A stretch of DNA of 36,433 nt from Eubacteriales bacterium (GCA_045659845.1 JAZRCQ010000294.1:1-36433), one strand, 5' to 3'. Counted from the first letter of the stretch, positions 2,052 to 35,298 are shown. The notes: a model not told the origin generated them from the sequence alone. Program-made: numbers and translations.

Positions 2052-2483
2052 TCAGAGCTTTTTAATATCGTCCTCGGAGATCATTCTGAAGCCTGCGGCC
2101 GTCAAGGCAGCCTCAGCCACTGCATTGTCCTCCACTCGCAGCACCACGTAGGCATGCCGCTCGGTGCGCGCCATGAAGGCATACATATATTCCACGTTGA
2201 TATCCTCCCGATCCAGCACGGAAAGAGCCTCGGTGAGCTTGCCGGGAGCATCCCCGATCTTCACGCCCACCACGTCGATCACCTTGATCAGATAGCCCTT
2301 TTTCGCAAGCACGGCCTCAGCGGTCTCCGGATCATTCACGATCAGGCGCAGGATTCCGAAATCCTGCGTTTCCGCAATGGAAAGTGCTCTCAGGTTCACT
2401 CCACAATCGGAAAGTGCCTCGGTAACCGATGCCACCGTTCCCTTTTTGTTCTGAACGAACACCGTTAATTGCTTGATTGCCAT
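2052..2483 (-). CDS. ACT-domain protein (tandem ACT, small-ligand/amino-acid-binding regulatory fold)
   Basis: Start moved to MAIKQLTVFVQNKKGTVASV (cat 2481-2483), with an AGGAGA RBS at complement 2491-2496. Two ACT-like repeats are present (LTVFVQNKKGTVA... and VVGVKIGDAPGKL...). The longer ORF-track N-terminus overlaps paaK and has no RBS. Confidence 0.8.
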   Translation of the reverse strand: MAIKQLTVFVQNKKGTVASVTEALSDCGVNLRALSIAETQDFGILRLIVNDPETAEAVLAKKGYLIKVIDVVGVKIGDAPGKLTEALSVLDREDINVEYMYAFMARTERHAYVVLRVEDNAVAEAALTAAGFRMISEDDIKKL

Positions 2484-2499
2484 AGCTGCCTCTCCTTTC

Positions 2500-3810
2500 T
2501 TAAATGAGCTTACGCTTATCGACCACGCGAACGGCCTTGCCCTCGCTTCTTGCAATGCTCTTGGGCGGAACGAGATGCACCAGCGGATTGATGCCCAGCA
2601 TGGTTTTGATCGCATTGGCAAGAGATTTTTCCATCGCCATGATCTCGCTCACCTTATCCGTGAAGCGTTCTGCCGTCATCTCCACGTTCACGTCGAAGGT
2701 ATCGTTGTTCTTCACGCGGTCCACCACGATCTGATAATTGGGCTCATAGCCCTCCTTGAGCAGCACTGTTTCGATCTGGCTGGGGAACACGTTCACGCCG
2801 CGGATGATCAGCATATCGTCGGTTCTGCCCATGGGCTTGGCCATCTTGATCAGCGTGCGGCCGCAGGAGCACTTCTTGCGGGAGAGCACACAAATGTCGC
2901 GGGTGCGATAGCGGAGCAGGGGGAACGCCTCCTTATCCAAGGAGGTGAACACCAGCTCACCCTTGCTTCCCTCGGGAAGCACCTCACCCGTTTCGGGATC
3001 AATGATCTCGGCAAAGAAATGATCCCCGTTGATATGCATGCCGCTCTGCTCACTGCATTCAAAGGCAACGCCGGGGCCGGTGGTCTCGGTGAGGCCGTAG
3101 ATATCGTAGGCCTTGATGCCCAGCAATTTTTCGATGCTTTGGCGCATCTCCTCCGTCCACCGCTCAGCGCAGAAGATGCCTGCCTTCAGCGGCATATCCT
3201 CCGGCCGGTAGCCCTGCTCCTTCAGGCTCTCGCCCAGATAGGCGGCGTAGGAGGGGGTGCAGCAAAGAATGGTGGCATTCAGATCCATCATGAACTGGAT
3301 CTGGCGCTCGGTGTTGCCCGAGGAAAGCGGCAGCGTGAGGCATCCAACCTTATGGGAGCCGCCGTTCAGGCCGGGGCCGCCGGTGAACAGGCCGTAGCCG
3401 TAGGCCACCTGGCAAACGTCCTTCTTCGAGCCGCCAACGGCAACGATCGCGCGGGCGCAGCAATCCTCCCAAAGATCGAGATCCTTCTGCGTGTAGAAGG
3501 CAACCACGCGGCGGCCGGTGGTTCCGGAGGTGGACTGAATGCGAACGCAATCCTCCAGCGGCTTCGCCAACAGACCGTAGGGATAGGCGTCGCGAAGATC
3601 GGCCTTGGAAAGGAACGGAAGCTTGTGGAGATCGTCGATGCTCTGAATATCCTCCGGTCGAACGCCTTTCTGATCCATCAGATCCCGATAGTAGGCAACG
3701 TTTTCATAAACGTGCCTGACCTGCTTGATCAGCTTCTCCGATTGGAGCTTTTTCATCTCCTCACGGGGCATGGTTTCAATTTCCTTTTGGAAATAGCGTT
3801 GCTGTTCCAT
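2500..3810 (-). CDS. paaK: Phenylacetate--CoA ligase (PaaK-family adenylate-forming enzyme)
   Basis: 436 aa. N-terminal MPREEMKKLQSEKLIKQVRHVYENVAYYRDLM...LPFLSKADLRD, the SSGTTGR P-loop (QSTSGTTGRRV), YGLTE and RYRTRD motifs are hallmarks of the PaaK/CoF420-ligase-like subfamily. Confidence 0.85.
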   Translation of the reverse strand: MEQQRYFQKEIETMPREEMKKLQSEKLIKQVRHVYENVAYYRDLMDQKGVRPEDIQSIDDLHKLPFLSKADLRDAYPYGLLAKPLEDCVRIQSTSGTTGRRVVAFYTQKDLDLWEDCCARAIVAVGGSKKDVCQVAYGYGLFTGGPGLNGGSHKVGCLTLPLSSGNTERQIQFMMDLNATILCCTPSYAAYLGESLKEQGYRPEDMPLKAGIFCAERWTEEMRQSIEKLLGIKAYDIYGLTETTGPGVAFECSEQSGMHINGDHFFAEIIDPETGEVLPEGSKGELVFTSLDKEAFPLLRYRTRDICVLSRKKCSCGRTLIKMAKPMGRTDDMLIIRGVNVFPSQIETVLLKEGYEPNYQIVVDRVKNNDTFDVNVEMTAERFTDKVSEIMAMEKSLANAIKTMLGINPLVHLVPPKSIARSEGKAVRVVDKRKLI

Positions 3811-4336: not shown

Positions 4337-4615
4337 TCATAAACGCGATGATGCGGAATAGTATGCAAAAGGATTCGCCTTCAGAGAATTGCCGGCCGGT
4401 GCGAGGCATGGGAAGAGCTTTGCAGAACTCACCGTTGAGCGGTTGCCATGAAATTGCAGAGTAGTGGCAAACGGGAGCTCCCGTCACAGAGTCAAGATGT
4501 GTCAGCATCGAAGGTGCATCCCGCATCGGGATGAAGAAGAGTGGTACCGCGGAAACACGAGGATCGGCGTTTTCGTCTCTTTGAAGCAACAAAGAGATGG
4601 AAGCGTGTTTTTGTT
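4337..4615 (+). promoter_or_regulatory. T-box riboswitch, specifier CUC (Leu)
   Basis: - K-turn GAUGA at 4347-4351;
- S-turn AGUA at 4360-4363;
- AG bulge AGAGA at 4383-4387;
- distal loop GGUGCGA at 4398-4404;
- specifier loop GAA-CUC-A at 4425-4431, flanked by helix UGCAAAAG/CUUUGCA above and GCGG/CCGU below;
- T-box motif AGAGUGGUACCGCGG at 4538-4552;
- terminator stem 4568-4605 (core UCUCUUUG/CAAAGAGA) followed by UUUUU at 4608-4612. Confidence 0.88.
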
Positions 4616-4660
4616 GCATCACCGGTCCCGAATTTCCAAGCTTGAAAGGAGCATTCCATC

Positions 4661-6049
4661 ATGAGACAGATCAACGTAGCCGACATCACCCTCAAAAAGC
4701 TTTCGGAGGATCGCGCAGTTTCCCTGCTGTTCCGCGAGAAATCCGCTATTGCCAATTGCGCCGACCGTCTCGGTGCAAACTGCATCGAGCTGCCCCCCGT
4801 GAAGAACGTGCGCGAGGATTCTATCATCTATAAGACCATTGCGAAAAATGTTCGGAGCGCCGCGCTGGCCATTCCCGTTGGCTACACCGCCGACGACGTT
4901 GCCGTTGCATGGGAATGCATCCGCGAGGCCAAGGCTCCCCGTCTGCAGGTGGAGCTTCCCGTTTCCACCATTCAAATGGAATACACCTATCACGTGAAGC
5001 AATCCAAAATGCTGGAAAAGATCGGCGAGCTGGTTGCCGCCGCAAAAGCTCTCTGCTCCGACGTGGAGTTCTCCGCGCTGGATGCCACCAGAGCCGACGA
5101 GGAATTTCTGATCGCCGCCGTGCGGGAGGCCGAGGCGAAGGGCGCATCCGTCATCACGATCTGTGATAACGCCGGTGCATCCACTCCCGATCAGATCGGC
5201 GAGCTCACTCAAAAGGTGAAGGCGACCGTGTCCGTTCCCGTGTACGTTCAAGTGTCCGATCGCGTGAGCATGGCAGTTGCATCCGCGTTTTCCGCCATTG
5301 CCTGCGGTGCCGACGGACTCAAGAGCGCCATGGCGGGCAAGGATGCTCTGCTGACGGGGGCACTCTCCGACGCCATGAATGCCTGCGGCGCGCGGCTCGA
5401 CGCGGCAATCAGCCTGAACAGCACCAATATCCACGCCAGCATCGAGGATCTGAAGGCAGGCATCCGCCATGAGGCCGATGAGACCGAGTCCTCTGAAAGC
5501 GAGCAGAAGCGGATCCTGCTGGATTCCGATTCCACTCTGGCGCAGGTGGCCGACACGGCCGCTCTTCTGGGCTACGAGCTTTCGGATTCCGATATTGGAA
5601 ACGTTTATAAGGCGCTGTCGCAGGTCTGTGCGCGCAAGGGTGCCGTTGGAGCCAAGGAGCTGGAGGCTCTGATCGCAAGCTCCGCCATGCAGGCTCCCTC
5701 CACCTATCATTTTGAAACCTACACCACCACCAGCAGCAATATCTCCAGCGCAATGACGCAGATCGTTCTGAAGAACAACAATGAATGCATCTGCGGCGTC
5801 AGCGCAGGCGACGGCCCCATCGATTCCGCCTTCCGCGCCATCGAGCAATGTGTGGGCCATCACTATGAGCTGGACGATTATCAGGTGCAGTCGGTCACCG
5901 AGGGCAAGGAGGCTCTGGGCTCCGCCTTGGTGAAGCTTCGCTACAACGGCAGGCTCTATTCCGGAAACGGCACCTCCACCGATATCATCGCCGCCAGCAT
6001 CCGCGCCTATATCAACGCACTCAACAAGATCGTTTTTGAGGAGGCATGA
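4661..6049 (+). CDS. 2-isopropylmalate synthase-like protein with degenerate catalytic motifs and an intact LeuA C-terminal regulatory domain (probable pseudoenzyme)
   Basis: 462 aa, with AAAGGAG RBS at 4645-4651. The HMGL-like TIM-barrel layout is recognisable (FSALDATRAD, ITICDNAGAS). The DTTLRDGEQ motif reads ADITLKKLSED, and the HxH metal site reads VQVSDRVSMAVAS. The C-terminal GDGPIDSAFRAIEQ...VTEGKEALGSALVKLRYNGRLYSGNGTSTDIIAASIRAYINALNK matches the LeuA allosteric/dimerisation domain. Confidence 0.7.
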   Translation: MRQINVADITLKKLSEDRAVSLLFREKSAIANCADRLGANCIELPPVKNVREDSIIYKTIAKNVRSAALAIPVGYTADDVAVAWECIREAKAPRLQVELPVSTIQMEYTYHVKQSKMLEKIGELVAAAKALCSDVEFSALDATRADEEFLIAAVREAEAKGASVITICDNAGASTPDQIGELTQKVKATVSVPVYVQVSDRVSMAVASAFSAIACGADGLKSAMAGKDALLTGALSDAMNACGARLDAAISLNSTNIHASIEDLKAGIRHEADETESSESEQKRILLDSDSTLAQVADTAALLGYELSDSDIGNVYKALSQVCARKGAVGAKELEALIASSAMQAPSTYHFETYTTTSSNISSAMTQIVLKNNNECICGVSAGDGPIDSAFRAIEQCVGHHYELDDYQVQSVTEGKEALGSALVKLRYNGRLYSGNGTSTDIIAASIRAYINALNKIVFEEA

Positions 6050-6055
6050 TCCAGC

Positions 6056-8515
6056 ATGAAAATCGTTTTTTCCACTAAAAACGTGAGCCGAGCCTCCTTT
6101 CTCGACACCTGCCGCATTGCTCACGACTACGGCTTCGAGGGCTTTGAGATCTATGATGCCGTTGGCGAACGGAGCGTTCACTCCGACAGCGTTCTGAGAC
6201 GCGACAAAATGGCCGATGCCAAAAGAAAGCTCGTCAACCGAAATCTGGCCGTTTCCGCGCTTCGGATGCCCCATCCCGTGGAGCATGCGGAAACCACAGC
6301 GGAGCTGATCCAAAAATATGTGGATATGGCCGCCACGGCAGGCATTGAAAACGTGATCGTTCGTGCAGAAGCCCCCGTTTCCTTTGCGCTTCTGGATGAA
6401 AAAATGGCTGCGGCGATCAAGCGGGCGGAGCAAGCAGGAGTTGGCATCCTGCTGGAAACCGTTGGCAGTCTGGCGAGAACCGAAAACGTGATCGCTATCA
6501 TCAATCACTTCGCCTCTGCCGCCATCGGAGCCTCCTGGAACGTTCGCGGCACCTATTTCGATGCGGGCGAAACCGCTGAGGTGACCATCAAAAATCTGGG
6601 CGCCTACATCCGCTACGTTCGTCTCGGAGACATGAAGGACGGCAAGACCGTTCTGATCGGCGAGGGCGATCTGGACGTGAAAAAGCTCCTCAACGCCCTT
6701 TCCTCTCTCAACTACGAGGGCTTCATCTGCGCCGCATGGAACGAGGAGATCAACGATGCCGACATCGTGTTGACTCATTTTACCAATTACATTTCTGCGC
6801 TGGGACGTGAAAAAAAGTCCTTTGATCACGCATACTATAATCGGGCGAAAACCGGCACCTTCGTATGGAAAAAATACGATGTGATCGAGGCCACCTTCGC
6901 CGACGTGCTGGACACCATGGCCGAACGGTATCCCGATCAGTATGCCTTCAAGTACCCCACGCTGGACTACACCCGAACCTACGAGCAGTTCCGCCGCGAC
7001 GTGGACGAATGCGCCGCCGCCCTCATTTCCTTGGGCGTGAAGGCCGGTGATCACGTGGCGATCTGGGCCACCAACGTGCCCCAATGGTTCATCACCTTCT
7101 GGGCCACCACCAAGATCGGCGCCGTGTTGGTTACCGTGAACACCGCCTATAAGATCCACGAGATCGAATATCTGCTCAAGCAATCCGACACCCACACCCT
7201 CGTGATGGTGGAATATTGCAAGGATATCAACTATAAGGAGATCATCGAGCAGCTCTGTCCCGAGCTGAAGGCGCTCCATCCGGGCGATCCCCTCTATTCC
7301 AAGAATCTTCCCTTCCTGCGCAACGTTGTGACCGTTGGCTTCGGCATGGACGGTTGTCTCACCTGGGAGCAAATGCTCTCCCGCTCTGCCCTCGTGCCCC
7401 GTGAGGAGGTTCGCCGCCGCGCTTCCCTTGTGAAGCCCGACGACGTTTGCAATATGCAATACACCTCGGGAACCACCGGCTTCCCCAAGGGCGTGATGCT
7501 CACCCATCGCAACATCGTGAACAACGGAAAGACCATCGGCGACAGAATGGATCTCTCCACGGCCGATCGCATGATGATCCAAGTGCCCATGTTCCATTGC
7601 TTCGGCATGGTGCTTTCCATGACCTCCATGATGACTCACGGCGGCACGCTCTGCCCCATTCCCTATTTCTCGCCCAAATCCTCTCTTGCCTGCGTGAACG
7701 ATGAGCGCATCACCTGCTTCAACGGTGTGCCCACCATGTTCATTGCTATGTTCAATCATCCCGATTTTGCCAAGACCGACTTTTCCTATATGAGAACCGG
7801 AATCATGGCAGGAGCAAACTGCCCCGCCGATCTGATGCGCCGCGCATCCGAGGAAATGAATATGCGGGAGATCATCTCCGTGTACGGCCAGACCGAGGCC
7901 TCCCCCGGATGCACCATGGGCGAGGTGAACGAGGATCTGGACCATCGCGTGGAAACCGTTGGCAGTGCCTTCCCCGGCGTGGAATGCAAGATCATTGATC
8001 CGGAAACCGGCGACGAGCTTCCCGACGGCGAAAGCGGCGAGTTCGTGGCACGCGGCTTCAACATCATGAAGGGCTACTACAAAATGCCTGAGGCCACGGC
8101 GCAGGCCATCGATGCCAACGGCTGGCTCCACTCGGGCGACATCTGCATGAGAACCCCCGACGGCTACTATAAGGTGACGGGCCGCCTCAAGGATATGATC
8201 ATCCGCGGCGGAGAAAATCTCTATCCTCGCGAAATCGAGGAATTCTACCTCACAAATCCCAAGATCCGCGACGTTCAGGTGGTTGGCGTGCCCGACGAGA
8301 CCTACGGCGAGGAATGCTGTGCATGGGTGATCCTGCACAAGGGAGAAACCGCCGATGAAAAGGAAATGAAGGCCTTCGGTGCCGCATCCATTGCCAAGCA
8401 CAAGGTGCCCAGATACTTCCTCTTCGTGAATGAATTCCCCATGAACGCCGCCGGAAAGATCCTGAAATACAAGATGCGTGAGGAATCCGCTGAAAAGCTG
8501 GGATTGAAAAAATAA
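6056..8515 (+). CDS. Fusion protein: N-terminal xylose-isomerase-like TIM barrel (AP endonuclease 2 family) + C-terminal AMP-forming acyl-CoA synthetase
   Basis: 819 aa, with a GAGGAGG RBS. Residues ~1-250 (GFEGFEIY..., GILLETVG, YIRYVRLGD, GEGDLD, GFICAAWN) resemble sugar-phosphate isomerase/epimerase-type TIM barrels. Residues ~270-819 carry the ANL motifs YTSGTTGFPKGV, YGQTE, GWLHSGD, GRLKDMIIRGGENLYP and the terminal GKILK. Confidence 0.78.
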   Translation: MKIVFSTKNVSRASFLDTCRIAHDYGFEGFEIYDAVGERSVHSDSVLRRDKMADAKRKLVNRNLAVSALRMPHPVEHAETTAELIQKYVDMAATAGIENVIVRAEAPVSFALLDEKMAAAIKRAEQAGVGILLETVGSLARTENVIAIINHFASAAIGASWNVRGTYFDAGETAEVTIKNLGAYIRYVRLGDMKDGKTVLIGEGDLDVKKLLNALSSLNYEGFICAAWNEEINDADIVLTHFTNYISALGREKKSFDHAYYNRAKTGTFVWKKYDVIEATFADVLDTMAERYPDQYAFKYPTLDYTRTYEQFRRDVDECAAALISLGVKAGDHVAIWATNVPQWFITFWATTKIGAVLVTVNTAYKIHEIEYLLKQSDTHTLVMVEYCKDINYKEIIEQLCPELKALHPGDPLYSKNLPFLRNVVTVGFGMDGCLTWEQMLSRSALVPREEVRRRASLVKPDDVCNMQYTSGTTGFPKGVMLTHRNIVNNGKTIGDRMDLSTADRMMIQVPMFHCFGMVLSMTSMMTHGGTLCPIPYFSPKSSLACVNDERITCFNGVPTMFIAMFNHPDFAKTDFSYMRTGIMAGANCPADLMRRASEEMNMREIISVYGQTEASPGCTMGEVNEDLDHRVETVGSAFPGVECKIIDPETGDELPDGESGEFVARGFNIMKGYYKMPEATAQAIDANGWLHSGDICMRTPDGYYKVTGRLKDMIIRGGENLYPREIEEFYLTNPKIRDVQVVGVPDETYGEECCAWVILHKGETADEKEMKAFGAASIAKHKVPRYFLFVNEFPMNAAGKILKYKMREESAEKLGLKK

Positions 8516-8538
8516 CGATCACAATCTGTGGAGGCGCA

Positions 8539-8970
8539 ATGTATTTTGACGATCTTCAAATCGGAATGACGGTGGACATTGATTCCACCGTCATCGAAAA
8601 AGAAAAAATGATGGAGTTTGCCCGCGTTTACGATCCGATACCGCTGCATACCGATGAGGAATATGCTCGGTCTACCCCCTTCGGCGATCTGATCGCCCCC
8701 GGCATGATGTCGTTTATGTCCCTGTGGGCAAAGTATCTGGAGGTCGATTTCTTCGGCAAGGAGCTTTTGGCCGGAAAATCCACCAGGATCGAATGGCTCA
8801 AGCCCGTTTATGCCAACGACAGCTTATCGGGCAGGGCCACCATCACGGCATTGACGAAGAGAAATGACAAAAACGGTTTGGCCGAAATCTCCATCTATGC
8901 CTACAATCAAAAGGGAGAGCCGGTGCTGACAAACGTTACGGAGGCGATCGTAAAGTGCAAGCCGAGCTGA
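8539..8970 (+). CDS. MaoC-like (R)-specific enoyl-CoA hydratase/dehydratase, hotdog fold
   Basis: 143 aa with a GGAGG RBS. FARVYDPIPLHTDEEYARSTPFGDLIAPGMM matches the MaoC dehydratase motif (D-x-N/P-P-x-H-x-D ... G-x-I-A-x-G). Confidence 0.75.
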   Translation: MYFDDLQIGMTVDIDSTVIEKEKMMEFARVYDPIPLHTDEEYARSTPFGDLIAPGMMSFMSLWAKYLEVDFFGKELLAGKSTRIEWLKPVYANDSLSGRATITALTKRNDKNGLAEISIYAYNQKGEPVLTNVTEAIVKCKPS

Positions 8971-8976
8971 TGCTCT

Positions 8977-8995
8977 GCGGAACGTGTCGTTCTGC
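8977..8995 (+). terminator. Weak hairpin after the MaoC gene (possible operon terminator)
   Basis: gcggaacg-tgt-cgttctgc forms an 8-bp stem with one G-U pair. A T-run (catttttttt) follows only after an A-run, so termination efficiency is uncertain. Confidence 0.3.
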
Positions 8996-9025
8996 GCCAA
9001 AAAAACATTTTTTTTGAAAAAGGTA

Positions 9026-9054
9026 TTGACAAATCCGGTTTTCCGTGCTATAAT
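9026..9054 (+). promoter_or_regulatory. Sigma-70-type promoter TTGACA-N17-TATAAT for the third T-box
   Basis: ttgaca at 9026-9031, 17-nt spacer, tataat at 9049-9054. Confidence 0.65.
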
Positions 9055-9060
9055 TTTTTA

Positions 9061-9348
9061 AAATTTGAATATCAAAAAAGACTGTGATGAAGAGGATCGG
9101 AAAGCAATGCTTCCAGAGAGTTGTCGGGCGGTGCGAGACAATAACAGAGACTTCCATATGATCTATCACTTCTGAGTCGAAGGACCGAACCCGGGGCATT
9201 CCCCTGTCAGTAGACTCCTTCCGTATTGCTGCGTCAAAGCAAAGGGCTTGTTGGAGTCCGGAAAGTGACGGAATTGAATTCCGTAATTTGAGTGGTACCG
9301 CGGGTGAATAGCTCGTCTCAAGGGTTTTCTTTTGAGACGAGTTTTTTG
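9061..9348 (+). promoter_or_regulatory. T-box riboswitch, specifier probably AUC (Ile); assignment uncertain
   Basis: - K-turn GUGAUGA at 9084-9090;
- AG bulge AGAGAG at 9115-9120;
- distal loop GGUGCGA at 9130-9136 (the block gtcgggcggtgcgagaca is identical to the Phe T-box);
- T-box motif GAGUGGUACCGCGGG at 9290-9304, with A1 UUGAG/CUCAA;
- terminator CUCGUCUCA...UGAGACGAG + UUUUUU at 9311-9348.
The 3' side of Stem I reads ...AUG AUC U AUC A CUUC UGAGUC. AUC-A (9165-9168) sits directly before the 4-bp helix (GAAG/CUUC) and the K-turn, the same layout as in the other two leaders. No clean AGUA/GAA S-turn is visible. Confidence 0.8.
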
Positions 9349-9413
9349 TTTTATTCAGATTTTCAAATGCGTAATCATGAACCATAAGGACAGAAAGGAA
9401 AGGGGTCACAGCA

Positions 9414-11714
9414 ATGGATTACAGCTTGAAAGAGGTTGCAAGAAGAATTAGGGATCTACGCGAGGCCAAGGGCTACTCCCCTGCCGAGCTTGCAAGACTC
9501 ACCGGCGTTTCCCTTGAGGATTACACGCTTTTGGAGGAAGGAAACACCGACTTCAGCTTCACCTTCATTTATAAATGCGCAAAGGCCTGCGGCGTTGAGG
9601 TGGTTGACATTCTGGAGGGAAGCAGCACCACCCTCACCTCCTTCGCCATCACCCGCAAGGGCGAAGGCCTCAAGATCCTGAAGCAGCACGGCGTGGAATA
9701 CAACAATCTCGCACCCAAGTTCAAGGAGAAGCTCGCCGAGCCCTTCCTCGTGAAATTCCCTTACATCCCCGAGGAGCAAAACGTGCCGATGAAGCTCAAC
9801 TCCCACAACGGTCAGGAATTCGACGTGATCGTGAAGGGCTCGCTGAAGGTGCAGATCGGAAGCCACGTGGACGTGCTTCATGAGGGTGATTCCATTTTCT
9901 ATAACAGCTTGATCCCCCACGGCATGATCGCCGCAAGCGAGGGCGGTTGCGAATTCCACGCGGTGGTTCTCAATCCGCAGAACGGTCAGGTGAGCGAGGA
10001 ATATCCCGAGGCGCCCTACGTTGCGGCGAGAGTGGCCGAAAAGGCAGAGGAAACCGCCACGGTTGCCGATCAGTTCGTAACCTCCACCTACGATGAAAAC
10101 GGCGTTTTCAACGGCATTTCCTTCAAAAACGACGATCAATTCAACTTCGCCTTCGACTGCGTGGACGCCATTGCGAAAAAGAATCCCGATAAGCTTGCAA
10201 TGCTTTGGGTTGGCAACGATAAGAGCGACCGTCGCTTCACCTTTGCCGACATGAAGAAATATTCTGCCAAGACAGCAAACTATTTCGAGTCTCTCGGCAT
10301 CAAAAAGGGCGACACCGTGATGCTGGTGCTGAAGCGTCATTACCAATTCTGGTTCTGCATGCTGGCACTGCATAAGATCGGCGCCATCGCGATCCCCGCC
10401 ACCAATCAGCTGGTGGAGCATGACTTCGCTTACAGATATCAGGCCGCCAAGGTGAAGGCGATCGTTTGCACCGCCGATGGCGACGTTTCCTCCGAGGCCG
10501 AAAAGGCCGCCGCTCAGTTCCCCGGCCTGCTCAAGGTGCTTGTTGGCGGCAAGAAAGAAGGCTGGAATGATTTCAACGTGGAAATGGAACGCTTCAGCAC
10601 CCATTATTACCGCACCGAGCAAACGCCCTGCGGCAATGATCCCATGCTGATGCTCTTCACCTCGGGCACCACGGGCTATCCCCGCATCGCCACCCACTCC
10701 TATAAATATGCGCTGGGCCACTACCCCACCGCCAAGCATTGGCACAACGTCAAAGCCAACGGCCTGCACTTCACCATCTCCGATACGGGATGGGGCAAGG
10801 CGCTCTGGGGCAAGCTCTACGGTCAGTGGCTCTGCGAGGCCGGGATCTTCACCTACGATTTCGATCGCTTCCGCTCCGAGGATATTCTGCCCATGTTCAA
10901 GAAATACGGCATCACCACCTTCTGCGCTCCTCCCACCATGTATCGCTTCTTCATCAAGGAGGATCTCTCCAAATATGATCTTTCCTCCATTGAATATGCC
11001 ACCACGGCAGGCGAGGCGCTGAACCCCGAGGTGTTCAACCAGTTCAAGAAGGCCACCGGACTCACCATCATGGAGGGCTTCGGGCAAACCGAAACCACCC
11101 TTTCCATTGCAAACTTCGTTGGCTCCACGCCCAAGATCGGATCGATGGGTAAGCCCAGCCCGCTCTACGACGTGGTGGTGCTGGATCCCGACGGCAACGA
11201 ATGCAAGACCGGCGACACGGGCGAGATCTGCATCCGCACAAAGGATCATATTCCCTGCGGTCTCTTCATCGGCTACTATCTGGATGAGGAAAAAACGCGC
11301 GACGCCTGGTACGACGGCTATTATCACACCGGCGATCAGGCCACCATGGACGAGGACGGCTATCTCTGGTACGTCGGCCGCATCGACGATGTGATCAAGT
11401 CCTCCGGCTACCGCATCGGGCCCTTTGAGATCGAAAGCGTGATCATGGAGCTTCCCTACGTGCTGGAATGCGCCATCACGCCCGTTCCCGACGAGGTGCG
11501 CGGTCAGATCGTGAAGGCCACCATCGTGCTGACAAAGGGCACCGTTGGCACCGACGCGCTGAAAAAGGAGATTCAGGAGTACGTGAAAACGCACACCGCT
11601 CCCTATAAGTACCCCCGCATCGTTGAGTTTGTGGAGGAGCTTCCCAAGACGATCAGCGGAAAGGTGCGCCGCGTGGAGATCCGCAAAAACGATCTGGAAA
11701 AAATGAAAAAATAA
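9414..11714 (+). CDS. Fusion protein: XRE-type HTH + cupin domain fused to a medium-chain (ACSM/MACS-like) AMP-forming acyl-CoA synthetase
   Basis: 766 aa. Residues 1-~65 form an HTH_3 domain (LREAKGYSPAELARLTGVSLEDYTLLEEG). Residues ~90-190 form a cupin (NSHNGQEFDVIVKGSLKVQIG...GDSIFYNSLIPHGM). Residues ~230-766 carry FTSGTTGYPR, TISDTGWGKALWGKLY, EGFGQTE, YHTGDQA, GRIDDVIKSSGYRIGPFEIE and the terminal SGKVRR, typical of medium/short-chain acyl-CoA synthetases. Confidence 0.8.
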   Translation: MDYSLKEVARRIRDLREAKGYSPAELARLTGVSLEDYTLLEEGNTDFSFTFIYKCAKACGVEVVDILEGSSTTLTSFAITRKGEGLKILKQHGVEYNNLAPKFKEKLAEPFLVKFPYIPEEQNVPMKLNSHNGQEFDVIVKGSLKVQIGSHVDVLHEGDSIFYNSLIPHGMIAASEGGCEFHAVVLNPQNGQVSEEYPEAPYVAARVAEKAEETATVADQFVTSTYDENGVFNGISFKNDDQFNFAFDCVDAIAKKNPDKLAMLWVGNDKSDRRFTFADMKKYSAKTANYFESLGIKKGDTVMLVLKRHYQFWFCMLALHKIGAIAIPATNQLVEHDFAYRYQAAKVKAIVCTADGDVSSEAEKAAAQFPGLLKVLVGGKKEGWNDFNVEMERFSTHYYRTEQTPCGNDPMLMLFTSGTTGYPRIATHSYKYALGHYPTAKHWHNVKANGLHFTISDTGWGKALWGKLYGQWLCEAGIFTYDFDRFRSEDILPMFKKYGITTFCAPPTMYRFFIKEDLSKYDLSSIEYATTAGEALNPEVFNQFKKATGLTIMEGFGQTETTLSIANFVGSTPKIGSMGKPSPLYDVVVLDPDGNECKTGDTGEICIRTKDHIPCGLFIGYYLDEEKTRDAWYDGYYHTGDQATMDEDGYLWYVGRIDDVIKSSGYRIGPFEIESVIMELPYVLECAITPVPDEVRGQIVKATIVLTKGTVGTDALKKEIQEYVKTHTAPYKYPRIVEFVEELPKTISGKVRRVEIRKNDLEKMKK

Positions 11715-11800: not shown

Positions 11801-12358
11801 TTATAATTTATCGAACCGTTTCATAACTCTGACGAGCCGCGGCCGATTATAGCGCTGAAGGATCACAAAAACGGAATCGATCAGCATGGCACAAACCGAC
11901 GTTGTAATCATTGCCGCCGTACCGCCCAGAAGCGGTGCAAAGGCGATCGGCAGAAGGCTCAGCACCATGATCACCTCGTGAATGATCTCCGCCTGACAGG
12001 TTGCGCCGATCAATTCCCGAACGGTTTTTCGATGGGGATCAAACGTTTCAGGATCGTAGGTTGGAACGTATTTTTTCCATCTTCGCACTCGGATCAGCTT
12101 ATATAGCTTATCCTCAAAGCTTTTTTCGCGAAACCATCCGTTTGTGTGGTCGGCTTGATTTTTCATGACCAGATCCACAATCGTTCCAACGGCTAGCCGC
12201 ATGGCAAAATGATATAGTGTTACTCCAACCGTGACGGTGAGCGCTTCCGCAACGGCATTTTGAGAAAGGAGGCATACAGGCAGAAGTCCCGCAAATCCAA
12301 GCGCAAGGAATACGGTTGTTAAAATCATTCGTTTTCTCAATGGCTTACCCTCTTCCAT
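11801..12358 (-). CDS. Small polytopic membrane protein, possibly glycosyl-4,4'-diaponeurosporenoate acyltransferase (CrtO)-like family
   Basis: 185 aa with 4 predicted TM segments. The RVRRWKKYVPTYDPETF ... QAEIIHEV ... LQRYNRPRL pattern resembles that family from memory. GC content is lower than in neighbouring genes. Confidence 0.4.
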   Translation of the reverse strand: MEEGKPLRKRMILTTVFLALGFAGLLPVCLLSQNAVAEALTVTVGVTLYHFAMRLAVGTIVDLVMKNQADHTNGWFREKSFEDKLYKLIRVRRWKKYVPTYDPETFDPHRKTVRELIGATCQAEIIHEVIMVLSLLPIAFAPLLGGTAAMITTSVCAMLIDSVFVILQRYNRPRLVRVMKRFDKL

Positions 12359-12637
12359 TTTTGATTTGCCAAGCTCATTATATCACATTTTTGTTAACAA
12401 ATCAAAGCATAGCCTTGTATATCACCCGCAACTTGTTGCACGATGAAATCCGCCTCTCTTTATCCTTGCGAAGCAAGATTTCATCGCATAGCGATTTCAT
12501 CCACGAAGTGGATTTATCCCGTCCGTAAGGACGGATTTAACTGAAAAGGATACAAAATTCTAATGGGTGCATTTTAGGGTTAATGGGTGCATAAACGGAT
12601 GAATTTTTCAAAAATGGGGGCAATTTAACGATAGGTT

Positions 12638-14065
12638 TCAAAAATTATTATTTTTTGATTTGTTAAGTTGATTTTTGATTATTTCATACGCCACTTTATC
12701 GTCTTTAAATTTGTAAAGTTTGAATTTTGACCAAGTTGTTTGAATAATTATCCTTTTATTGTATTCAACTGCAAGGATATTTTGATAATCACAATTAAAC
12801 GAAATATTGTATCCATCGTGCTTTAATCCATTCTCATATATTTCAATGCATTTAGAATCGCTATATCCGGATTTCTTATCCCTTGTATAACCTATCAGAG
12901 ATGAAATCAATACAAGTAATGATACACACAAAGAAGCTCCGAGACCCATGATTAAATACACAATCCATTTCATTTGTGGATTTAAAAGTTGGATTATTAC
13001 CCATATTCCATTATTAAACAATAATATTGAGATCAAAATTTGAATCATCAAACGCCACTGATGAATTGTGCTATATTTATGCTTATATATCAAGTCACCG
13101 TAATCATGCTCATACTCATCAAAATCATCATATATAGGATATTGATCGAAATGAAGACCATATTCTTTACATCTATTTTGAAATAGCAACACTTTGTCTG
13201 CTAATTTGTTTTGACGTTTTCTGTTATTTACATATTTACAAAAACTATAAACGATATCATTGCTGAAAATGAGACAACGTTGCATTATATCATCATTCTC
13301 TATATACCCTAACACATTTCTTTGCTTGAAATCTAAAATATCATTAATAGAATTATTAATTTCAATCCAACCGGAATTGGTTTTGATTGTAAGATTATTT
13401 TCAGAAACGCTATATTCAAATTTTTTGATATCGATTTTTCTCTCAAATATAGACTTAAACTCTACATGTCTTGCTATTAATATTTTTTCTTCTGCACCTG
13501 ACATAGGGGCAAAAGAAAATTCTATACAGCCATCAGCTATACGCATATCACAATGAGAAAATATTTGCCCAAACTCCAAAGAGCTTTTGACGATACCTTT
13601 ACATTTTAAAACTATGAAGGAGCCCCAAGATGTATCCAAAAGTATCTCAAGTGTATTATTCTCTTCGTTTATTCCTAAAACATATCCATCGTGGAATGAA
13701 CCCGAATTTAAATCCAATGCATCAAAATCGGATGTTTTCTCAATTTTTTTAAATTCGCAAAGGCTCTCCGCGCGCAACATCCCCTTTGCTTCATCGAGCA
13801 TTTTTGAGGTGTATTGCTTTCTCTTGATTGTTCTAAAAATATTCTTATCGTTCCAATATGATTTAAACTCGCTATTATTAATAGAAAAATCATCAGTATC
13901 AAAATCTATAAAAAGAACGGTATATCTGTTATCTCTACAAACATCAACAACAATCAACTCGGCAAAAGAGCTGTCAAAAACAACAGCTTTGCTCGGATAT
14001 TTCATAGATACGGCAAAAACAGGCGAATGGTATACACAGCCGTTAGACAGTATTTTTGCGAGCAT
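12638..14065 (-). CDS. Hypothetical protein, AT-rich orphan; soluble N-terminal region, TM hairpin, then a small C-terminal PH-like (bPH/DUF304-type) module
   Basis: 475-aa uninterrupted ORF in very AT-rich DNA, Asn/Lys/Ile/Phe-rich. AAGGAGAAAA RBS. It has its own TTGAAA-N17-TATAAT promoter. Two hydrophobic helices (WRLMIQILISILLFNNGIWVIIQLL, WIVYLIMGLGASLCVSLLVLISSLIGY) are followed by ~80 aa. I recognise no family for the first ~330 aa. Confidence 0.6.
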   Translation of the reverse strand: MLAKILSNGCVYHSPVFAVSMKYPSKAVVFDSSFAELIVVDVCRDNRYTVLFIDFDTDDFSINNSEFKSYWNDKNIFRTIKRKQYTSKMLDEAKGMLRAESLCEFKKIEKTSDFDALDLNSGSFHDGYVLGINEENNTLEILLDTSWGSFIVLKCKGIVKSSLEFGQIFSHCDMRIADGCIEFSFAPMSGAEEKILIARHVEFKSIFERKIDIKKFEYSVSENNLTIKTNSGWIEINNSINDILDFKQRNVLGYIENDDIMQRCLIFSNDIVYSFCKYVNNRKRQNKLADKVLLFQNRCKEYGLHFDQYPIYDDFDEYEHDYGDLIYKHKYSTIHQWRLMIQILISILLFNNGIWVIIQLLNPQMKWIVYLIMGLGASLCVSLLVLISSLIGYTRDKKSGYSDSKCIEIYENGLKHDGYNISFNCDYQNILAVEYNKRIIIQTTWSKFKLYKFKDDKVAYEIIKNQLNKSKNNNF

Positions 14066-14093
14066 ATAGATTTTCTCCTTTTGATTTTTATTT

Positions 14094-14122
14094 ATTATAT
14101 CACAAAATCACAATATTTTCAA
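14094..14122 (-). promoter_or_regulatory. Promoter TTGAAA-N17-(TGa)TATAAT of the AT-rich orphan gene
   Basis: Minus strand gtaTTGAAAatattgtgattttgtgaTATAATaaa. The -35 box is at complement 14117-14122 and the -10 box at complement 14094-14099. Confidence 0.5.
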
Positions 14123-14339
14123 TACTTTTCACCGTCTACGGTCTATATTTAACGAATATATCACAAATTTAACGAAAGCAAAAAGTGCCCAGCCACCGAA
14201 AGCACAAAAGCTCTCGGAAGATAGGCTCTTTTATCGCAAGATATGCTTTTTATGCCTCGAAAGTGCAAAAAAACCCCTAAAAAGCAATAAAAAACGCAGA
14301 TTAGGCACAAATAATTGTATCCTATCCTGCGTTCTTATT

Positions 14340-14424
14340 TGGTGCGGAAAACGGGACTTGAACCCGTACGGTGTGAACCACACGCCCCTCAAACGTGCGC
14401 GTCTGCCAGTTCCGCCACTTCCGC
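14340..14424 (-). tRNA. tRNA-Leu (anticodon GAG), class II with long variable arm, CCA encoded
   Basis: Reverse complement reads GCGGAAGTGGCGGAACTGGCAGACGCGCACGTTTGAGGGGCGTGTGGTTCACACCGTACGGGTTCAAGTCCCGTTTTCCGCACCA.
- Acceptor stem GCGGAAG/UUUCCGC;
- anticodon stem CACGU/GCGUG with loop UU-GAG-GG;
- T arm ACGGG-UUCAAGU-CCCGU;
- discriminator A. Confidence 0.92.
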
Positions 14425-31394: not shown

Positions 31395-31943
31395 TCACAG
31401 CCTTACGACTGTGTAGCCATGCCTCATTTCCGGAAGGATGCGCTCCGTGAGATCCTCCCGACGGATCCGCAGGCTGGACGTGTTGATGCAGGGATGCATG
31501 CCGATCCACTCCGATTCCAGCACGTCGCCGTCGATCAGAAGGCGCACTCTGCCCTCGGTGTCATTCATCAACCCCAGCACGCTGGCCGATCCGGGCGTGC
31601 ATCCAAGCAGCTGCTCCATATCCTCGGGGGAGGCAAAGGAGAGGCGCGAGGATTGGATCTGCGCGGAGAGATCCTTTGTGTGAAACACCTTATCTCCCCG
31701 AAGCATCAGCAGATAAAAGGCGGTTTTCTGACGGTTGCAAAGCAAGAGATTCTTGCAAATGGCCGCCTCCAGCACGCGATCGATCTCCCGACAAACCTCC
31801 ATCGTCATAGCAGGCGCATGGTCGATCCGCTCATATTCGATCCCCAGCTCCTCCAGAAGCGCATAGCATTTCTGCTCTCTGATCAGTCGCTCCGACAGCT
31901 CCTTCGGCGCGCCCTGCTCTCTTTTCAGCTCCTGCCCGCTCAT
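31395..31943 (-). CDS. YbaK/ProX-type aminoacyl-tRNA trans-editing (deacylase) domain protein
   Basis: Start set at MSGQELK (cat 31941-31943), forming an ATGA overlap with the metA stop (31940-31942). ...[29 protein letters not shown]....[24 protein letters not shown] is typical of prolyl-tRNA-synthetase-associated editing domains. Confidence 0.7.
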
Positions 31944-32857
31944 TGGATCTTGGAAATATCGTAGGGCGTGGTTTGATAAACGAAATAGTTCAGCCAATTG
32001 CAATAAAGCAGATTGGCATGAGAACGCCACGTTACCATCGGTGCCTGACTCGGATCGTTGTTGGGATAGTAATTCTTCGGGATCTTGATGGGCTTTCCCT
32101 CGGAAACGTCGCGATCGTATTCGCTCTTGAGCGTATGGGGATCATATTCGGGATGCCCCGTGATGAAGATCTGCTTGCCGTTTTCCGTTGCCATAGCGAA
32201 AATGCCCGCCTCCTCGGAGGAAGCCAGGATCTTCAGGCCGGGAACGGCTCTTGCGGCGGCCTCGTCGATACCCGTGTGACGGGAATGAGGCACCATAAAG
32301 CGATCATCAAAGCCGCGGAACAGAATAGAGCGCTTGTATTCCACCTCATGCGGGAACACGCCGAACATCTTCTCCCCCAGCGGAACCTTGTTCACGCCGA
32401 AGTGATAATAGAGTCCTGCCTGCGCGCCCCAGCAGATATGAAAGGTGCTATGCACGTGGTGACGGCTCCACTCCATGATCTCGCAAAGCTCCTCCCAATA
32501 TTCAACCTCCTCGAAGGGCATTTGCTCCACGGGAGCTCCCGTGATGATCATGCCGTCGAAATTGCGATGCTTCACGTCATCGAAGGTTTTATAGAAGGAG
32601 AGCAGATGCTCCTTGGACACGTTTTTGGATTGATGGCTCTTGGTGTGGATCAGCTCCAGCTCCACCTGCAGAGGAGTGTTGCCCAAAAGACGGGAAAACT
32701 GCGTTTCGGTCTCGATCTTTTTCGGCATCAGATTCAAAATCAGGATCTTCAAGGGGCGGATATCCTGCGTGATCGCGCGCGTTTCGGTCATCACGAAGAT
32801 GTTTTCATCGGTTAAGACCTTGACTGCGGGCAGATCGTTCGGTATTCTAATAGGCAT
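31940..32857 (-). CDS. metA: Homoserine O-acyltransferase (MetA family; acetyl- or succinyl-transferring)
   Basis: 305 aa. [23 protein letters not shown]...[24 protein letters not shown]...PLQVE..L........HF..CWGAQA match MetA along the full length. Confidence 0.93.
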
Positions 32858-32872
32858 TGCTTCAACTCCAAA

Positions 32873-34156
32873 TCAAATATTTTCCAGCGCCTGACGGAGA
32901 TCCTCGATGAGATCCTCCGTTCCCTCCAGACCGCAGGAGAGGCGGATCAGATCGGCGGAAACGCCTGCCGCCAAAAGCTCCTCGTCGTTCATCTGACGGT
33001 GCGTGGTGCTGGCGGGATGCAGGCAGCAGGAGCGGGCATCGGCTACGTGGGTTTCGATGGCGGCGATCTTCAGCCCCTCCATCAGCTTTCCTGCGGCCTC
33101 TCTGCCACCCTTCACGCCGAAGCTGATCACGCCGCAGCTACCGTTTGGCAGGTACTTCTCAGCCAGCGAGTGGTTTTTATCGTTTTTCAGACCGGGATAC
33201 ACCACCCAGGAGATCTTTTCATGCTTCTCCAGAAATTCCGCCACGGCCTGCGCATTGGCGCAATGTCTGGCCATTCTCACATGGAGGCTTTCCAGCCCCA
33301 TATTCAGGAGGAAGGCGCTCTGAGGCGACTGCACCGAGCCGAAATCTCTCATCAGCTGAGCGGTTGCCTTGGTGATATAGGCTCCCTCCAGTCCGAAGTC
33401 CTTGGCGTAGGTCACGCCGTGGTAGCTATCGTCGGGCGTGCAGAGGCCGGGGAACTTATCGGGGTAAGCCAGCCAATTGAACTTGCCCGAATCCACGATG
33501 CATCCGCCAACGGCGGCACCGTGACCATCCATATACTTGGTGGTGGAGTGGGTGACGATATCGGCGCCCCACTCGAAGGGACGGCAATTCACGGGGGTGG
33601 CAAAGGTGTTGTCCACGATCAGCGGGACGCCGTGGGCGTGGGCCACCCTTGCAAACTTCTCAATATCCAGCACGGTGAGCGCGGGATTGGCGATGGTCTC
33701 ACCGAACACGGCCTTGGTGTTGGGGCGGAAGGCGGCATTCAGCTCCTCCTCGGTGGCATCGGGGGAAACGAAGGTGAATTCGATGCCCATGCGCTTCATG
33801 GTGACGGCAAACAGATTGAAGGTGCCTCCGTAGATGGTGGCGGAGGAAACGATATGGTCGCCGCAGGAGGCAATGTTGAAAATGCTATAGAAGGAGGCCG
33901 CCTGACCGGAGGAGGTCAGCATAGCGGCAGTGCCTCCCTCCAGCTCACAGATCTTCTTTGCCACCGTGTCGCAGGTGGGATTCTGCAATCTGGAATAGAA
34001 ATAACCGGAGGCCTTCAGATCGAACAGGGCTCCCATGGCGTCGCCCGTGGTGTATTTGAAGGTGGTGCTTTGCACGATGGGGATCTGACGGGGCTCGCCG
34101 TTGCCGGGGGTGTAGCCGCCCTGCACGCAAACGGTATCCTTGCTATAGTTGCTCAT
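32873..34156 (-). CDS. metY: O-acetylhomoserine aminocarboxypropyltransferase / sulfhydrylase (PLP-dependent)
   Basis: Start set at MSNYSKDTVCVQGGY (cat 34154-34156, AAGGAGAGAA RBS). ...IVQSTTFKY..., YSRLQNPT, and the PLP-Lys context HSTTKYMDGHG. Confidence 0.92.
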   Translation of the reverse strand: MSNYSKDTVCVQGGYTPGNGEPRQIPIVQSTTFKYTTGDAMGALFDLKASGYFYSRLQNPTCDTVAKKICELEGGTAAMLTSSGQAASFYSIFNIASCGDHIVSSATIYGGTFNLFAVTMKRMGIEFTFVSPDATEEELNAAFRPNTKAVFGETIANPALTVLDIEKFARVAHAHGVPLIVDNTFATPVNCRPFEWGADIVTHSTTKYMDGHGAAVGGCIVDSGKFNWLAYPDKFPGLCTPDDSYHGVTYAKDFGLEGAYITKATAQLMRDFGSVQSPQSAFLLNMGLESLHVRMARHCANAQAVAEFLEKHEKISWVVYPGLKNDKNHSLAEKYLPNGSCGVISFGVKGGREAAGKLMEGLKIAAIETHVADARSCCLHPASTTHRQMNDEELLAAGVSADLIRLSCGLEGTEDLIEDLRQALENI

Positions 34157-34185
34157 GTTCTTCTCTCCTTTATTTCGGTTGTTCT

Positions 34186-34992: not shown

Positions 34993-35298
34993 CCATCGGT
35001 CTCCACCTTGTCGATTTTTCCAAAAGCATATCGGGTTCTCCCGCGCAAGCATGGATGGAAGAGAAAAAGCCCCAAAGCCTTCTTCGCAGATCGGCTTCAG
35101 GACGAGCTCCTTCGCGGTGTCACCCAAATTGCCGCTTTCAGCGGCCTCTCATCGGGCTCCGTGAAGCCCTTAGCCACGGCAATGAGGCGAGCCGTGACCA
35201 CCCACTTTCCTTCAGCGATCTGCTCAGGAGAGGCGCTCCTCCCCATCGGATCAAGCAAAAAACGGGAAAGAACGCTTCCTTCATCGCATTTTGAAATA
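34993..35298 (-). promoter_or_regulatory. ~300-nt structured leader of the amidohydrolase-metY-metA-ybaK operon (riboswitch-like, class unresolved)
   Basis: Lies between a consensus promoter and the first RBS. On the minus strand it contains GCGAUGA, the hairpins CACGGC/GCCGUG, GGGCU/AGCCC and GCCGC-UGAAA-GCGGC, and two T-box-like strings (GUGGGUGGUCACGGC and AAUUUGGGUGACACCGCG). I could not fit a canonical T-box Stem I, a T-box antiterminator or the SAM-I consensus. Confidence 0.4.

Follow-up and report, generated by a model that had tools for sequence, protein, structure and literature searches.

An isoleucine T-box-controlled fusion of a helix-turn-helix–cupin module to a MACS-type acyl-CoA synthetase in gut Clostridia, with a proposed role in the salvage of branched acids to isoleucine

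We analyzed a 36,433-nucleotide contig of an Eubacteriales bacterium (GCA_045659845.1, JAZRCQ010000294.1:1–36433; the whole stretch is referred to below as the window), which carries on its plus strand, at positions 9414–11714, a gene that joins a helix-turn-helix (HTH) domain and a cupin barrel to an AMP-forming acyl-CoA synthetase of the MACS type. The gene is a single uninterrupted open reading frame (ORF) of 766 residues, with an ATG start and a purine-rich ribosome-binding stretch (~9393–9405) on its 5′ side. Its product comprises an XRE-type five-helix HTH domain (aa 8–64; 9435–9605), a cupin barrel (aa ~76–188; 9639–9977), an acidic and poorly conserved linker that is predicted to be disordered (aa 189–215; 9978–10058), and the synthetase (aa 216–766; 10059–11711). 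The sequence-only reading that first drew attention to the gene had proposed this architecture, while allowing that the N-terminal region might fail to match HTH or cupin models. Pfam placed HTH_31 (aa 8–64, 35.3 bits), HTH_3 (aa 12–64, 32 bits), Cupin_2 (aa 129–184, 34 bits), AMP-binding (aa 252–622, 197 bits) and AMP-binding_C (aa 672–750, 77 bits) all above their curated cut-offs, in agreement with the domain boundaries of that reading. Its linker of ~40 residues proved too long: homology to the closest solved enzyme (3ETC) starts at aa 216, and aa 189–212 have a predicted local distance difference test (pLDDT) score below 50 in the full-length AlphaFold model, leaving ~25–30 residues. Conservation is 0.41 for aa 191–240, the region scored around the linker, versus 0.64–0.86 for the domains. 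The core motifs of the ligase are all intact (TSGTTG, 416–421; EGFGQTE, 554–560; YHTGD, 637–641; SSGYRIG, 663–669; PKTISGK, 744–750) and the ANL motifs A3, A5, A7, A8 and A10 are present, including the catalytic lysine. A minus-strand ORF over the same region (9456–11594, 712 aa) was taken as a by-product of the G+C-rich coding sequence opposite.

The gene stands behind a T-box leader with a strong promoter. A sigma-70-type promoter on the plus strand (9026–9054; TTGACA, a 17-nt spacer and a TG-extended TATAAT) matches the consensus at 12 of 12 positions. Equally strong −35 and −10 boxes are found 5′ of the homologous leaders, and many of the −35 boxes have UP-element-like A/T tracts on their 5′ side. 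The leader RNA (9075–9323, +), with Stem I, Stem III, T-box sequence and antiterminator, matches the full Rfam model RF00230 (1–219) with 86.9 bits (E = 3.6e-19) in a local E-value scan; the whole-window Rfam scan, run at the gathering threshold, overlooked it because the score lies just below the gathering score of 93. Homologous leaders 5′ of the same gene family in divergent loci score 93.3–109.6 bits. In the cmscan alignment and the predicted fold, the specifier codon is AUC (9165–9167, +), and A9168 and then the CUUC strand of the helix at the base of Stem I come next; AUCA (9165–9168) is unpaired just 5′ of that helix, the AGAGA and distal-loop motifs align to RF00230, and both a specifier loop and a UGGN bulge are present. 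AUC is the usual isoleucine specifier in T-box leaders, and the leader is therefore Ile-specific, which bears out the isoleucine-responsive T-box proposed earlier. The T-box core, AGUGGUACCGCG (9291–9302, +), contains UGGU at 9293–9296, the predicted partner of the NCCA end in an uncharged tRNA with discriminator base A. An intrinsic terminator (9310–9353, +) with a 15-bp stem plus U-run overlaps the antiterminator with its 5′ arm. The terminator fold (9310–9343; minimum free energy −22.3 kcal/mol, z = −7.4) and an antiterminator with a 7-nt UGGUACC bulge (−9.3 kcal/mol) are mutually exclusive, bases 9311–9321 being common to both. Known T-box leaders of branched-chain amino acid genes, such as ileS and the Bacillus ilv-leu operon, have the same specifier, UGGN bulge and competing terminator and antiterminator, but the regulated gene here is an acyl-CoA ligase and, in relatives of the window locus, a ligase–oxidoreductase operon.

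Among solved structures, the synthetase is closest to Methanosarcina acetivorans MacsMa (3ETC; aa 216–760, E = 1e-202, 678 bits), followed by a 4-hydroxybutyrate-CoA ligase (387 bits) and human ACSM2A (345 bits), whereas Acs-type chains reached at most 255 bits; the MACS/ACSM-like assignment made from the sequence was thus correct. MacsMa has the same core motifs and GWGK pocket segment as the window ligase, but it is a 580-residue archaeal chain, aligning from its residue 26, with no HTH-cupin part and no known RNA control; compared with it, the window protein has ~215 extra residues and a T-box. MacsMa prefers 2-methylbutyrate and completes both half-reactions with that acid (PMC10455477). 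The top NCBIfam model is MbcS (NF047394), whose Staphylococcus aureus representative activates 2-methylbutyrate and isobutyrate (PMC10026030). We assign the enzyme to the MACS family, under an isoleucine T-box, with high confidence. The most likely substrate would be 2-methylbutyrate, as judged from the MacsMa literature, the isoleucine T-box and the Gly/Ala split at residue 461 described below. It could be argued that the protein is a plain acetyl- or propionyl-CoA synthetase whose N-terminus is a vestige, or the product of an assembly error or frameshift; one homolog is named “acetyl-CoA synthetase,” and acetate–CoA ligase models appear as secondary matches. Against this, Acs-type models score far below the MACS match, MACS enzymes carry a glycine where a tryptophan limits the Acs pocket to acetate (PMC10455477), and the conservation of the HTH and cupin domains, unlike that of the linker, comes close to that of the ligase. 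Several hundred independent assemblies show an unbroken frame, which rules out the artefact, and we regard this explanation as a whole as scarcely credible.

The architecture is widespread. A scan of one genome per species found at least 580 stretches encoding a relative of the N-terminal module, and the best 80 loci were fetched. These all come from Clostridia (Oscillospiraceae, Acutalibacteraceae, Ruminococcus, Christensenellaceae and some Lachnospiraceae), in metagenome-assembled genomes of ruminant, chicken and human gut. The complete ORFs in them almost all have 750–800 residues, and the exact T-box core AGTGGTACCGCG lies 5′ of the called start in ~70 of the 80, 16–180 nt away and mostly at ~75–180 nt. 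All of the best 120 clusters listed at the 90%-identity level (87–92% identity) carry the same Pfam domain set; their names, where they have any, are “AMP-binding protein,” “helix-turn-helix domain-containing protein” or “acetyl-CoA synthetase.” A further 119 fused clusters, none of them named, surround a divergent member of the valine type introduced below, with HTH models below threshold in some. With hundreds of protein clusters of the same layout, the fusion is neither an artefact nor a rarity.

Within the 80 loci the fusion splits into two paralog clades that follow the T-box specifier. In the aligned leaders the specifier position reads either ATC (Ile) or GTA/GTC (Val), and the genes behind valine leaders form one protein clade. 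The two classes differ in an acyl-pocket segment, DTGWGK in the window protein (aa 457–462; 10782–10799, +), in which residue 461 is glycine in the Ile-T-box paralogs and alanine in the Val-T-box paralogs. ATC accompanies D-T-G-W-G-K in 54 cases and GTA/GTC accompanies G-W-A-K in 19, with no discordant case; 11 further cases, at contig ends or in masked sequence, fall outside this tally. Sixteen loci hold a tandem pair of fused genes, one Ile-type and one Val-type, each with its own T-box. Trp259 of MacsMa is critical for its acyl pocket (PMC10455477), and the tryptophan of the DTGWGK segment lies in the same region, as a putative counterpart. The Gly-to-Ala change at 461 would fit a pocket smaller by one carbon, i.e. 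isobutyrate (C4) in place of 2-methylbutyrate (C5). Beyond G461A, the positions that best separate the two classes are T50A and K54R, plus F47L in a smaller set, all on helix 4 of the N-terminal module, in a cluster at aa 47–58 (9552–9587). In this sense the module “knows” its paralog. The earlier link to 2-methylbutyrate and isobutyrate activation holds up well: the closest solved enzyme prefers 2-methylbutyrate, Ile- and Val-type paralogs have matching T-boxes, and genes for a 2-oxoacid:ferredoxin oxidoreductase (OFOR) and an aminotransferase occur nearby.

The Val-type gene is followed in many loci by genes for a CbiA/ParA-like P-loop NTPase, a 2×[4Fe-4S] ferredoxin and the alpha, beta and gamma subunits of an OFOR (Pfam POR_N and PFOR_II, TPP_enzyme_C, and POR, respectively). 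Because they lie directly downstream in the same orientation, the OFOR genes are probably co-transcribed with the Val-type ligase. A class I/II aminotransferase gene lies 3′ of a ligase pair in one locus (L087 in our numbering), and LeuA-like genes behind leucine T-boxes adjoin the Ile/Val ligase pair in four others (L054, L058, L059 and L065); a LeuA-like gene with a leucine T-box also neighbors the ligase gene in the window. At the far end of the window, on the minus strand, 35414–36324 encodes an OFOR gamma subunit (35414–35947; Pfam POR) and part of a beta subunit, a probable pathway partner; by BLAST these ORFs group with the OFOR beta and gamma genes that lie directly 3′ of the Val-type ligase elsewhere. 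The CbiA/ParA-like NTPase gene is kept between ligase and OFOR genes (e.g. L059, 8285–8956) and is also found beside a pair in which HTH-cupin and ligase are separate genes (L083, 707–1378). It is possible that the NTPase helps to mature or assemble Fe-S clusters for the OFOR.

These observations suggest a starvation-induced route from branched fermentation acids to isoleucine by reductive carboxylation, which we consider likely. The strong constitutive promoter would fire continually, with transcription normally ending at the leader terminator. When isoleucine is scarce, uncharged tRNA-Ile would pair with the AUC specifier and the UGGU bulge and hold the antiterminator, so that the ligase mRNA is completed. 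The ligase would then convert 2-methylbutyrate, an acid plentiful in rumen and gut, to 2-methylbutyryl-CoA; a VOR-type OFOR would carboxylate this reductively to 2-oxo-3-methylvalerate, using CO2 and reduced ferredoxin, and a transaminase would yield isoleucine. The sister paralog under the valine T-box would serve the same route with isobutyrate. The T-box gives such a pathway its logic because the route opens only when the cognate tRNA is uncharged. Whereas the architecture, the parts of the T-box, the correlation of specifier with paralog and the gene neighborhoods are observations, the substrate of the ligase, the direction of the OFOR reaction and the role of the N-terminal module are ones that we infer.

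A second fate for the acyl-CoA has to be weighed here, in which the ligase mainly supplies branched primers for membrane fatty acids and the T-box answers a falling supply of Ile/Val-derived primers. MbcS, the top curated family, serves branched fatty-acid synthesis (PMC10026030, PMC11167679), and a clostridial OFOR, Pfor4, supports branched fatty-acid formation, for which it is required, by working in the oxidative direction (PMC13011478). This oxidative direction is the chief rival to the reductive route; 2-methylbutyryl-CoA could serve both fates. S. aureus MbcS, which feeds membrane fatty-acid synthesis, lacks the N-terminal module, and no T-box has been found reported for it. Against primer supply, OFOR genes stand directly 3′ of a Val-type ligase with a valine T-box in many genomes, on the same strand. 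If the two are co-transcribed, an oxidative OFOR induced in valine starvation would use up the compound from which valine is made. In L087 an aminotransferase gene goes with the ligases, LeuA-like genes under leucine T-boxes lie alongside, and the T-box regulons described in two comparative surveys are made up of aminoacyl-tRNA synthetases and of genes for amino-acid synthesis and transport, neither survey mentioning acyl-CoA ligases or OFORs. We therefore judge primer supply improbable as the main role, although both fates of the acyl-CoA, fatty acid and amino acid, may coexist.

The N-terminal module was modeled by AlphaFold as five helices (aa 5–19, 23–30, 34–41, 49–58 and 63–68) and a barrel with a pLDDT of 91 when isolated. 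The full-length model has a predicted template modeling score of 0.63 with the linker disordered, and gives no confident placement of the module on the ligase. In Foldseek searches the best E-values went to HppE (1.7e-14), with HEPD, MPnS and Psf4 among the top matches, while the best overall superposition was with the putative regulator 1Y9Q (template modeling (TM) score 0.64–0.70); HppE superposes with a TM score of only 0.47, at 22–24% identity, because its domains are oriented differently. Profile searches matched 1Y9Q (3e-13) and HppE (5e-12), each over both domains. HppE, HEPD, MPnS and Psf4 share with the module an HTH-like helical domain and a 2-His-1-Glu cupin, with “HxGxEF...LEG” and “PH” in common, and the cupin motif of the window family aligns with “HaGnEF ... 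PHaf” of HppE. Across 62 members there is little or no variation at H131, E135 and H169, the 2-His-1-Glu set (61 of 62), or at G158 and D159, and G142 too is family-invariant. The triad lines up with H138, E142 and H180, which we take to be the iron ligands of HppE.

This resemblance raises the question of whether the module is itself an HppE-like mononuclear-metal enzyme that performs an extra step before or after CoA ligation. The Foldseek E-values, the HppE profile match over both domains, the invariant triad with its GD motif and a weak match to the cupin acetate kinase EutQ all favor such a role. The proposed pathway requires no added step, however; the hosts are strict anaerobes, in which oxidant-dependent non-heme iron chemistry is unlikely; phosphonate genes are absent from the window and from the loci with flanking genes examined; and the identity to HppE and its TM score are low. 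We consider a catalytic role of this kind very unlikely.

The sequence-only reading had instead suggested a trigger enzyme, which could repress genes elsewhere when its acid, CoA ester or amino-acid ligand is present. In such a scheme the HTH-cupin part would bind DNA, and the protein would repress its own promoter or the OFOR and transaminase genes according to a ligand or the catalytic state of the ligase. HTH-enzyme proteins of this sort are familiar: BirA, PutA and NadR combine an HTH with an enzyme in one polypeptide, as the window protein does, and BirA is itself an adenylate-forming enzyme whose adenylate acts as corepressor. XRE-cupin factors (Escherichia coli PuuR, a Pseudomonas aeruginosa family and 1Y9Q) have the same two-domain layout of HTH_3-type domain and Cupin_2, and XRE-cupin proteins are known as local repressors of adjoining metabolic genes (PMC7901475). 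In one locus (L083) a split HTH-cupin/ligase pair is divergent from CbiA-ferredoxin(-OFOR) genes across 86 nt that hold the inverted repeat CGTATC-N9-GATACG. Furthermore, the HTH is under purifying selection, and a paralog with an apparently dead ligase, described below, keeps the cupin part, which would fit a purely regulatory role.

The helix that would read the DNA argues otherwise. Across the 62 members the net charge of aa 1–70 is −6.3 ± 2.1 (range −11 to −2, never positive) and that of the turn plus helix 3 is −2.6; in the window protein the “recognition” helix, SLEDYTLLEEG (aa 33–43; helix 3, LEDYTLLE), is acidic. Position 35 is Glu or Asp in 50 of the 62 and position 36 in 31; we take these two to correspond to the base-contacting Q29 and S30 of the 434 repressor, with contacts at positions 34–36 and 39. 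XRE-cupin factors have polar or basic HTH residues where the window family is acidic. In profile alignments 1Y9Q reads “SKAMLGQIERG” at helix 3, whereas the family consensus, “sveeYeayesge,” resembles “TPETVAAWENGE” of HppE; the module matches this non-DNA-binding enzyme no less well than 1Y9Q, and the match extends to the Glu of the “recognition” helix. With the PuuR model the window module reaches 20.7 bits versus a cut-off of 211, and the window module, unlike the XRE-cupin factors, is fused to, or encoded just 5′ of, a MACS ligase.

Searches of promoters revealed no conserved operator. The only inverted repeats in 8960–9420 are the terminator, Stem III and an A/T repeat, and dyad-enrichment over 72 non-redundant promoter regions, which covers these promoters and not distant targets, returned A/T tracts only, with no non-trivial inverted repeat in common. 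Between the −10 box and Stem I (window 9065–9074) there is a AATTGAATAT(CAC) motif that 11 of 50 non-redundant Ile/Val leaders share; it is not palindromic, is absent from the leucine leader and is no more frequent in the window than expected by chance (7-mer counting, leader 5′ ends). Upstream of four split operons there were promoter-like boxes and, in L083/L084, one CGTATC-N9-GATACG repeat, but no motif common to the loci. Transcription, moreover, already has a sensor of its own, the T-box here and, in one split cluster (L089), an ArgR gene at its head. Of the trigger-enzyme idea, then, the union of HTH and enzyme stands, while its DNA-binding half is disfavored by the acidic HTH, the lack of a conserved operator and the likeness to HppE. 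We think it unlikely; the module is probably not DNA-binding, and the label “transcription factor” that automatic annotation would give it is probably wrong.

The company that the module keeps suggests a different role. When aa 1–240 were compared with 1.8 billion representative proteins, the relatives were fused proteins and many free-standing ones of ~185–195 residues, at 30–47% identity. Eight of nine sampled free-standing relatives (31–47% identity) are encoded directly upstream of a MACS-type ligase, at distances from a 4-nt overlap to 91 nt. The ligases of five of these eight split pairs are 43–54% identical to the window ligase, and the other three were recognized by Pfam AMP-binding or as an N-terminal fragment; the ninth relative lies 3′ of an OFOR gamma gene, its next gene downstream being cut off. 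The earlier premise of a stand-alone repressor joined to an enzyme is not supported here, in that the nearest free-standing relatives sampled already adjoin MACS ligases. No T-box was found at the four split loci scanned. Two of the split loci are on Bacteroidota-like contigs, one with ArgR, ArgC, ProC-like, HTH-cupin, ligase (50% identical to the window's), DUF2007 and OTCase genes (L089, 2365–8524), the other with HTH-cupin, ligase (by Pfam domains), ProB and ProA genes (L094, 5001–9993). The module stands beside a ligase in T-box, ArgR and proline-gene contexts alike and therefore persists whatever controls transcription.

A further arrangement is seen in L087 (2111–7978), where two tandem fused genes behind a weak T-box (65 bits) are followed by the class I/II aminotransferase gene. 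In the second fused gene (P0167) the P-loop, the A7 Asp and the catalytic Lys of A10 are gone; its cupin metal triad is kept, and no HTH model was recorded for it. Its product is an apparent pseudo-ligase.

We conclude that the HTH-cupin module is an old, dedicated partner of MACS ligases, which other lineages encode on its own and which a flexible linker tethers in the window protein. We tentatively propose that it acts at the protein level, as a ligand or redox sensor centered on the 2-His-1-Glu metal site that gates or assists the ligase; this is compatible with the second option of the sequence-only reading, in which the cupin gates the ligase. A bolder and still less certain possibility is that HTH-cupin and MACS proteins form an unrecognized two-component ligase system, present as two genes in Bacteroidota-like and some Firmicutes lineages and as a fusion in Oscillospirales-like Clostridia, in which the HppE-like metal centre reads a metabolite, iron or redox state and switches adenylation. 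If this is true, ATP would go into branched acids only at times when the OFOR, which is oxygen-labile, can take up the product, and the gene would be under double control, through tRNA charging at the RNA level and through the module at the protein level.

The best explanation of the locus as a whole, in which we have moderate confidence, is an isoleucine-T-box-gated 2-methylbutyrate–CoA ligase that feeds isoleucine synthesis, with the HTH-cupin module as its protein-level sensor or gatekeeper. Several points weigh against it. The leader falls 6 bits short of the Rfam gathering score. The MbcS match (447 bits) does not reach the equivalog cut-off of 850 bits, and we have therefore filed the protein as a MACS-family relative, not as MbcS, with a substrate that is deduced and not assigned. 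The OFOR genes of the window lie 24 kb from the ligase, with their promoter and regulation beyond the window end, and OFORs of this type can run oxidatively, as Pfor4 of C. thermocellum does in making branched fatty acids (PMC13011478). The correlation of specifier with pocket represents essentially one ancient duplication, and shows long-term retention rather than many independent events. With regard to the module, HTH_31, HTH_3 and Cupin_2 match above their cut-offs and the best superposition is with 1Y9Q, deposited as a transcriptional regulator, both of which favor DNA binding. No cupin residue was found that tells Ile-type from Val-type proteins, the discriminating positions being only 47, 50, 54 and 461, which argues against acid- or amino-acid-specific sensing by the barrel.

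It has been known since the 1960s that anaerobes of the rumen and gut require branched isoacids, from which they build valine, isoleucine and leucine by reductive carboxylation. This isoacid physiology is also cited in later work (PMC7356843), and our literature search found no assignment of the clostridial genes for the activation step or of their regulation. Neither the enzyme family nor the T-box mechanism nor the physiology is new in itself. New, as far as the search shows, are the fusion family, a T-box-controlled acyl-CoA ligase or ligase–OFOR cluster with Ile/Val specificity, and the HTH-cupin/MACS module; no report of an HTH-cupin–ligase fusion or of T-box control of acyl-CoA ligases or OFORs was found, although an earlier mention in another T-box survey is possible. 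The locus and its relatives provide a testable gene assignment, with Ile- and Val-specific ligase paralogs, matching T-boxes and a neighboring OFOR. As the family is very common in metagenome-assembled genomes of ruminant and human gut, this assignment bears on isoacid feed supplements, on the gut's balance between fatty acids and amino acids with branched chains, and on genome-scale models, which now name these genes “AMP-binding protein.” The known T-box targets would gain an acyl-CoA ligase and an OFOR operon, and MACS ligases a conserved HTH-cupin partner present in more than one phylum.

The window contains a second T-box (4339–4583, +; 124 bits), with specifier CUC for leucine, which is the only one at the gathering threshold. 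It heads the upstream operon (4339–8970), which encodes a short LeuA-like protein (4661–6049), an 819-residue fusion (6056–8515) and a MaoC-like dehydratase (8539–8970). The fusion consists of a xylose-isomerase-like TIM barrel and a FadD-like AMP-binding ligase, and is another enzyme–ligase fusion under amino-acid control. A minus-strand ORF of 1260 aa (4619–8401), lying over these real plus-strand genes, is a typical by-product of G+C-rich sequence and, like the one at 9456–11594, should stay unannotated. Further upstream on the minus strand (2052–3810), a phenylacetate–CoA-ligase-like gene (AMP-binding and AMP-binding_C_2) adjoins an ACT-domain gene. Like the HTH-cupin/MACS combination, this pair unites an acid-activating ligase with a small ligand-binding partner, but it differs in its AMP-binding_C_2 subfamily and ACT fold, is unfused, and shows no T-box; it may be an aromatic-acid counterpart of the ligase-plus-sensor theme.

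Downstream of the fused gene, a low-GC island (12000–14424; GC 0.31–0.37 versus ~0.55) holds a minus-strand ORF of 475 aa (12638–14065) with a weak PIN7 match only. It abuts a tRNA-Leu(GAG) gene (14340–14424), whose product reads CUC, the specifier of the leucine T-box, and looks like foreign DNA inserted beside a tRNA gene. Near the OFOR genes, methionine-related genes lie on the minus strand (31395–35127), among them a homoserine O-acyltransferase of the HTS family (31940–32857) and a Cys/Met pyridoxal-phosphate enzyme (32873–34240), together with an amidohydrolase (34186–35127) and a free-standing tRNA_edit domain protein (31395–32030).

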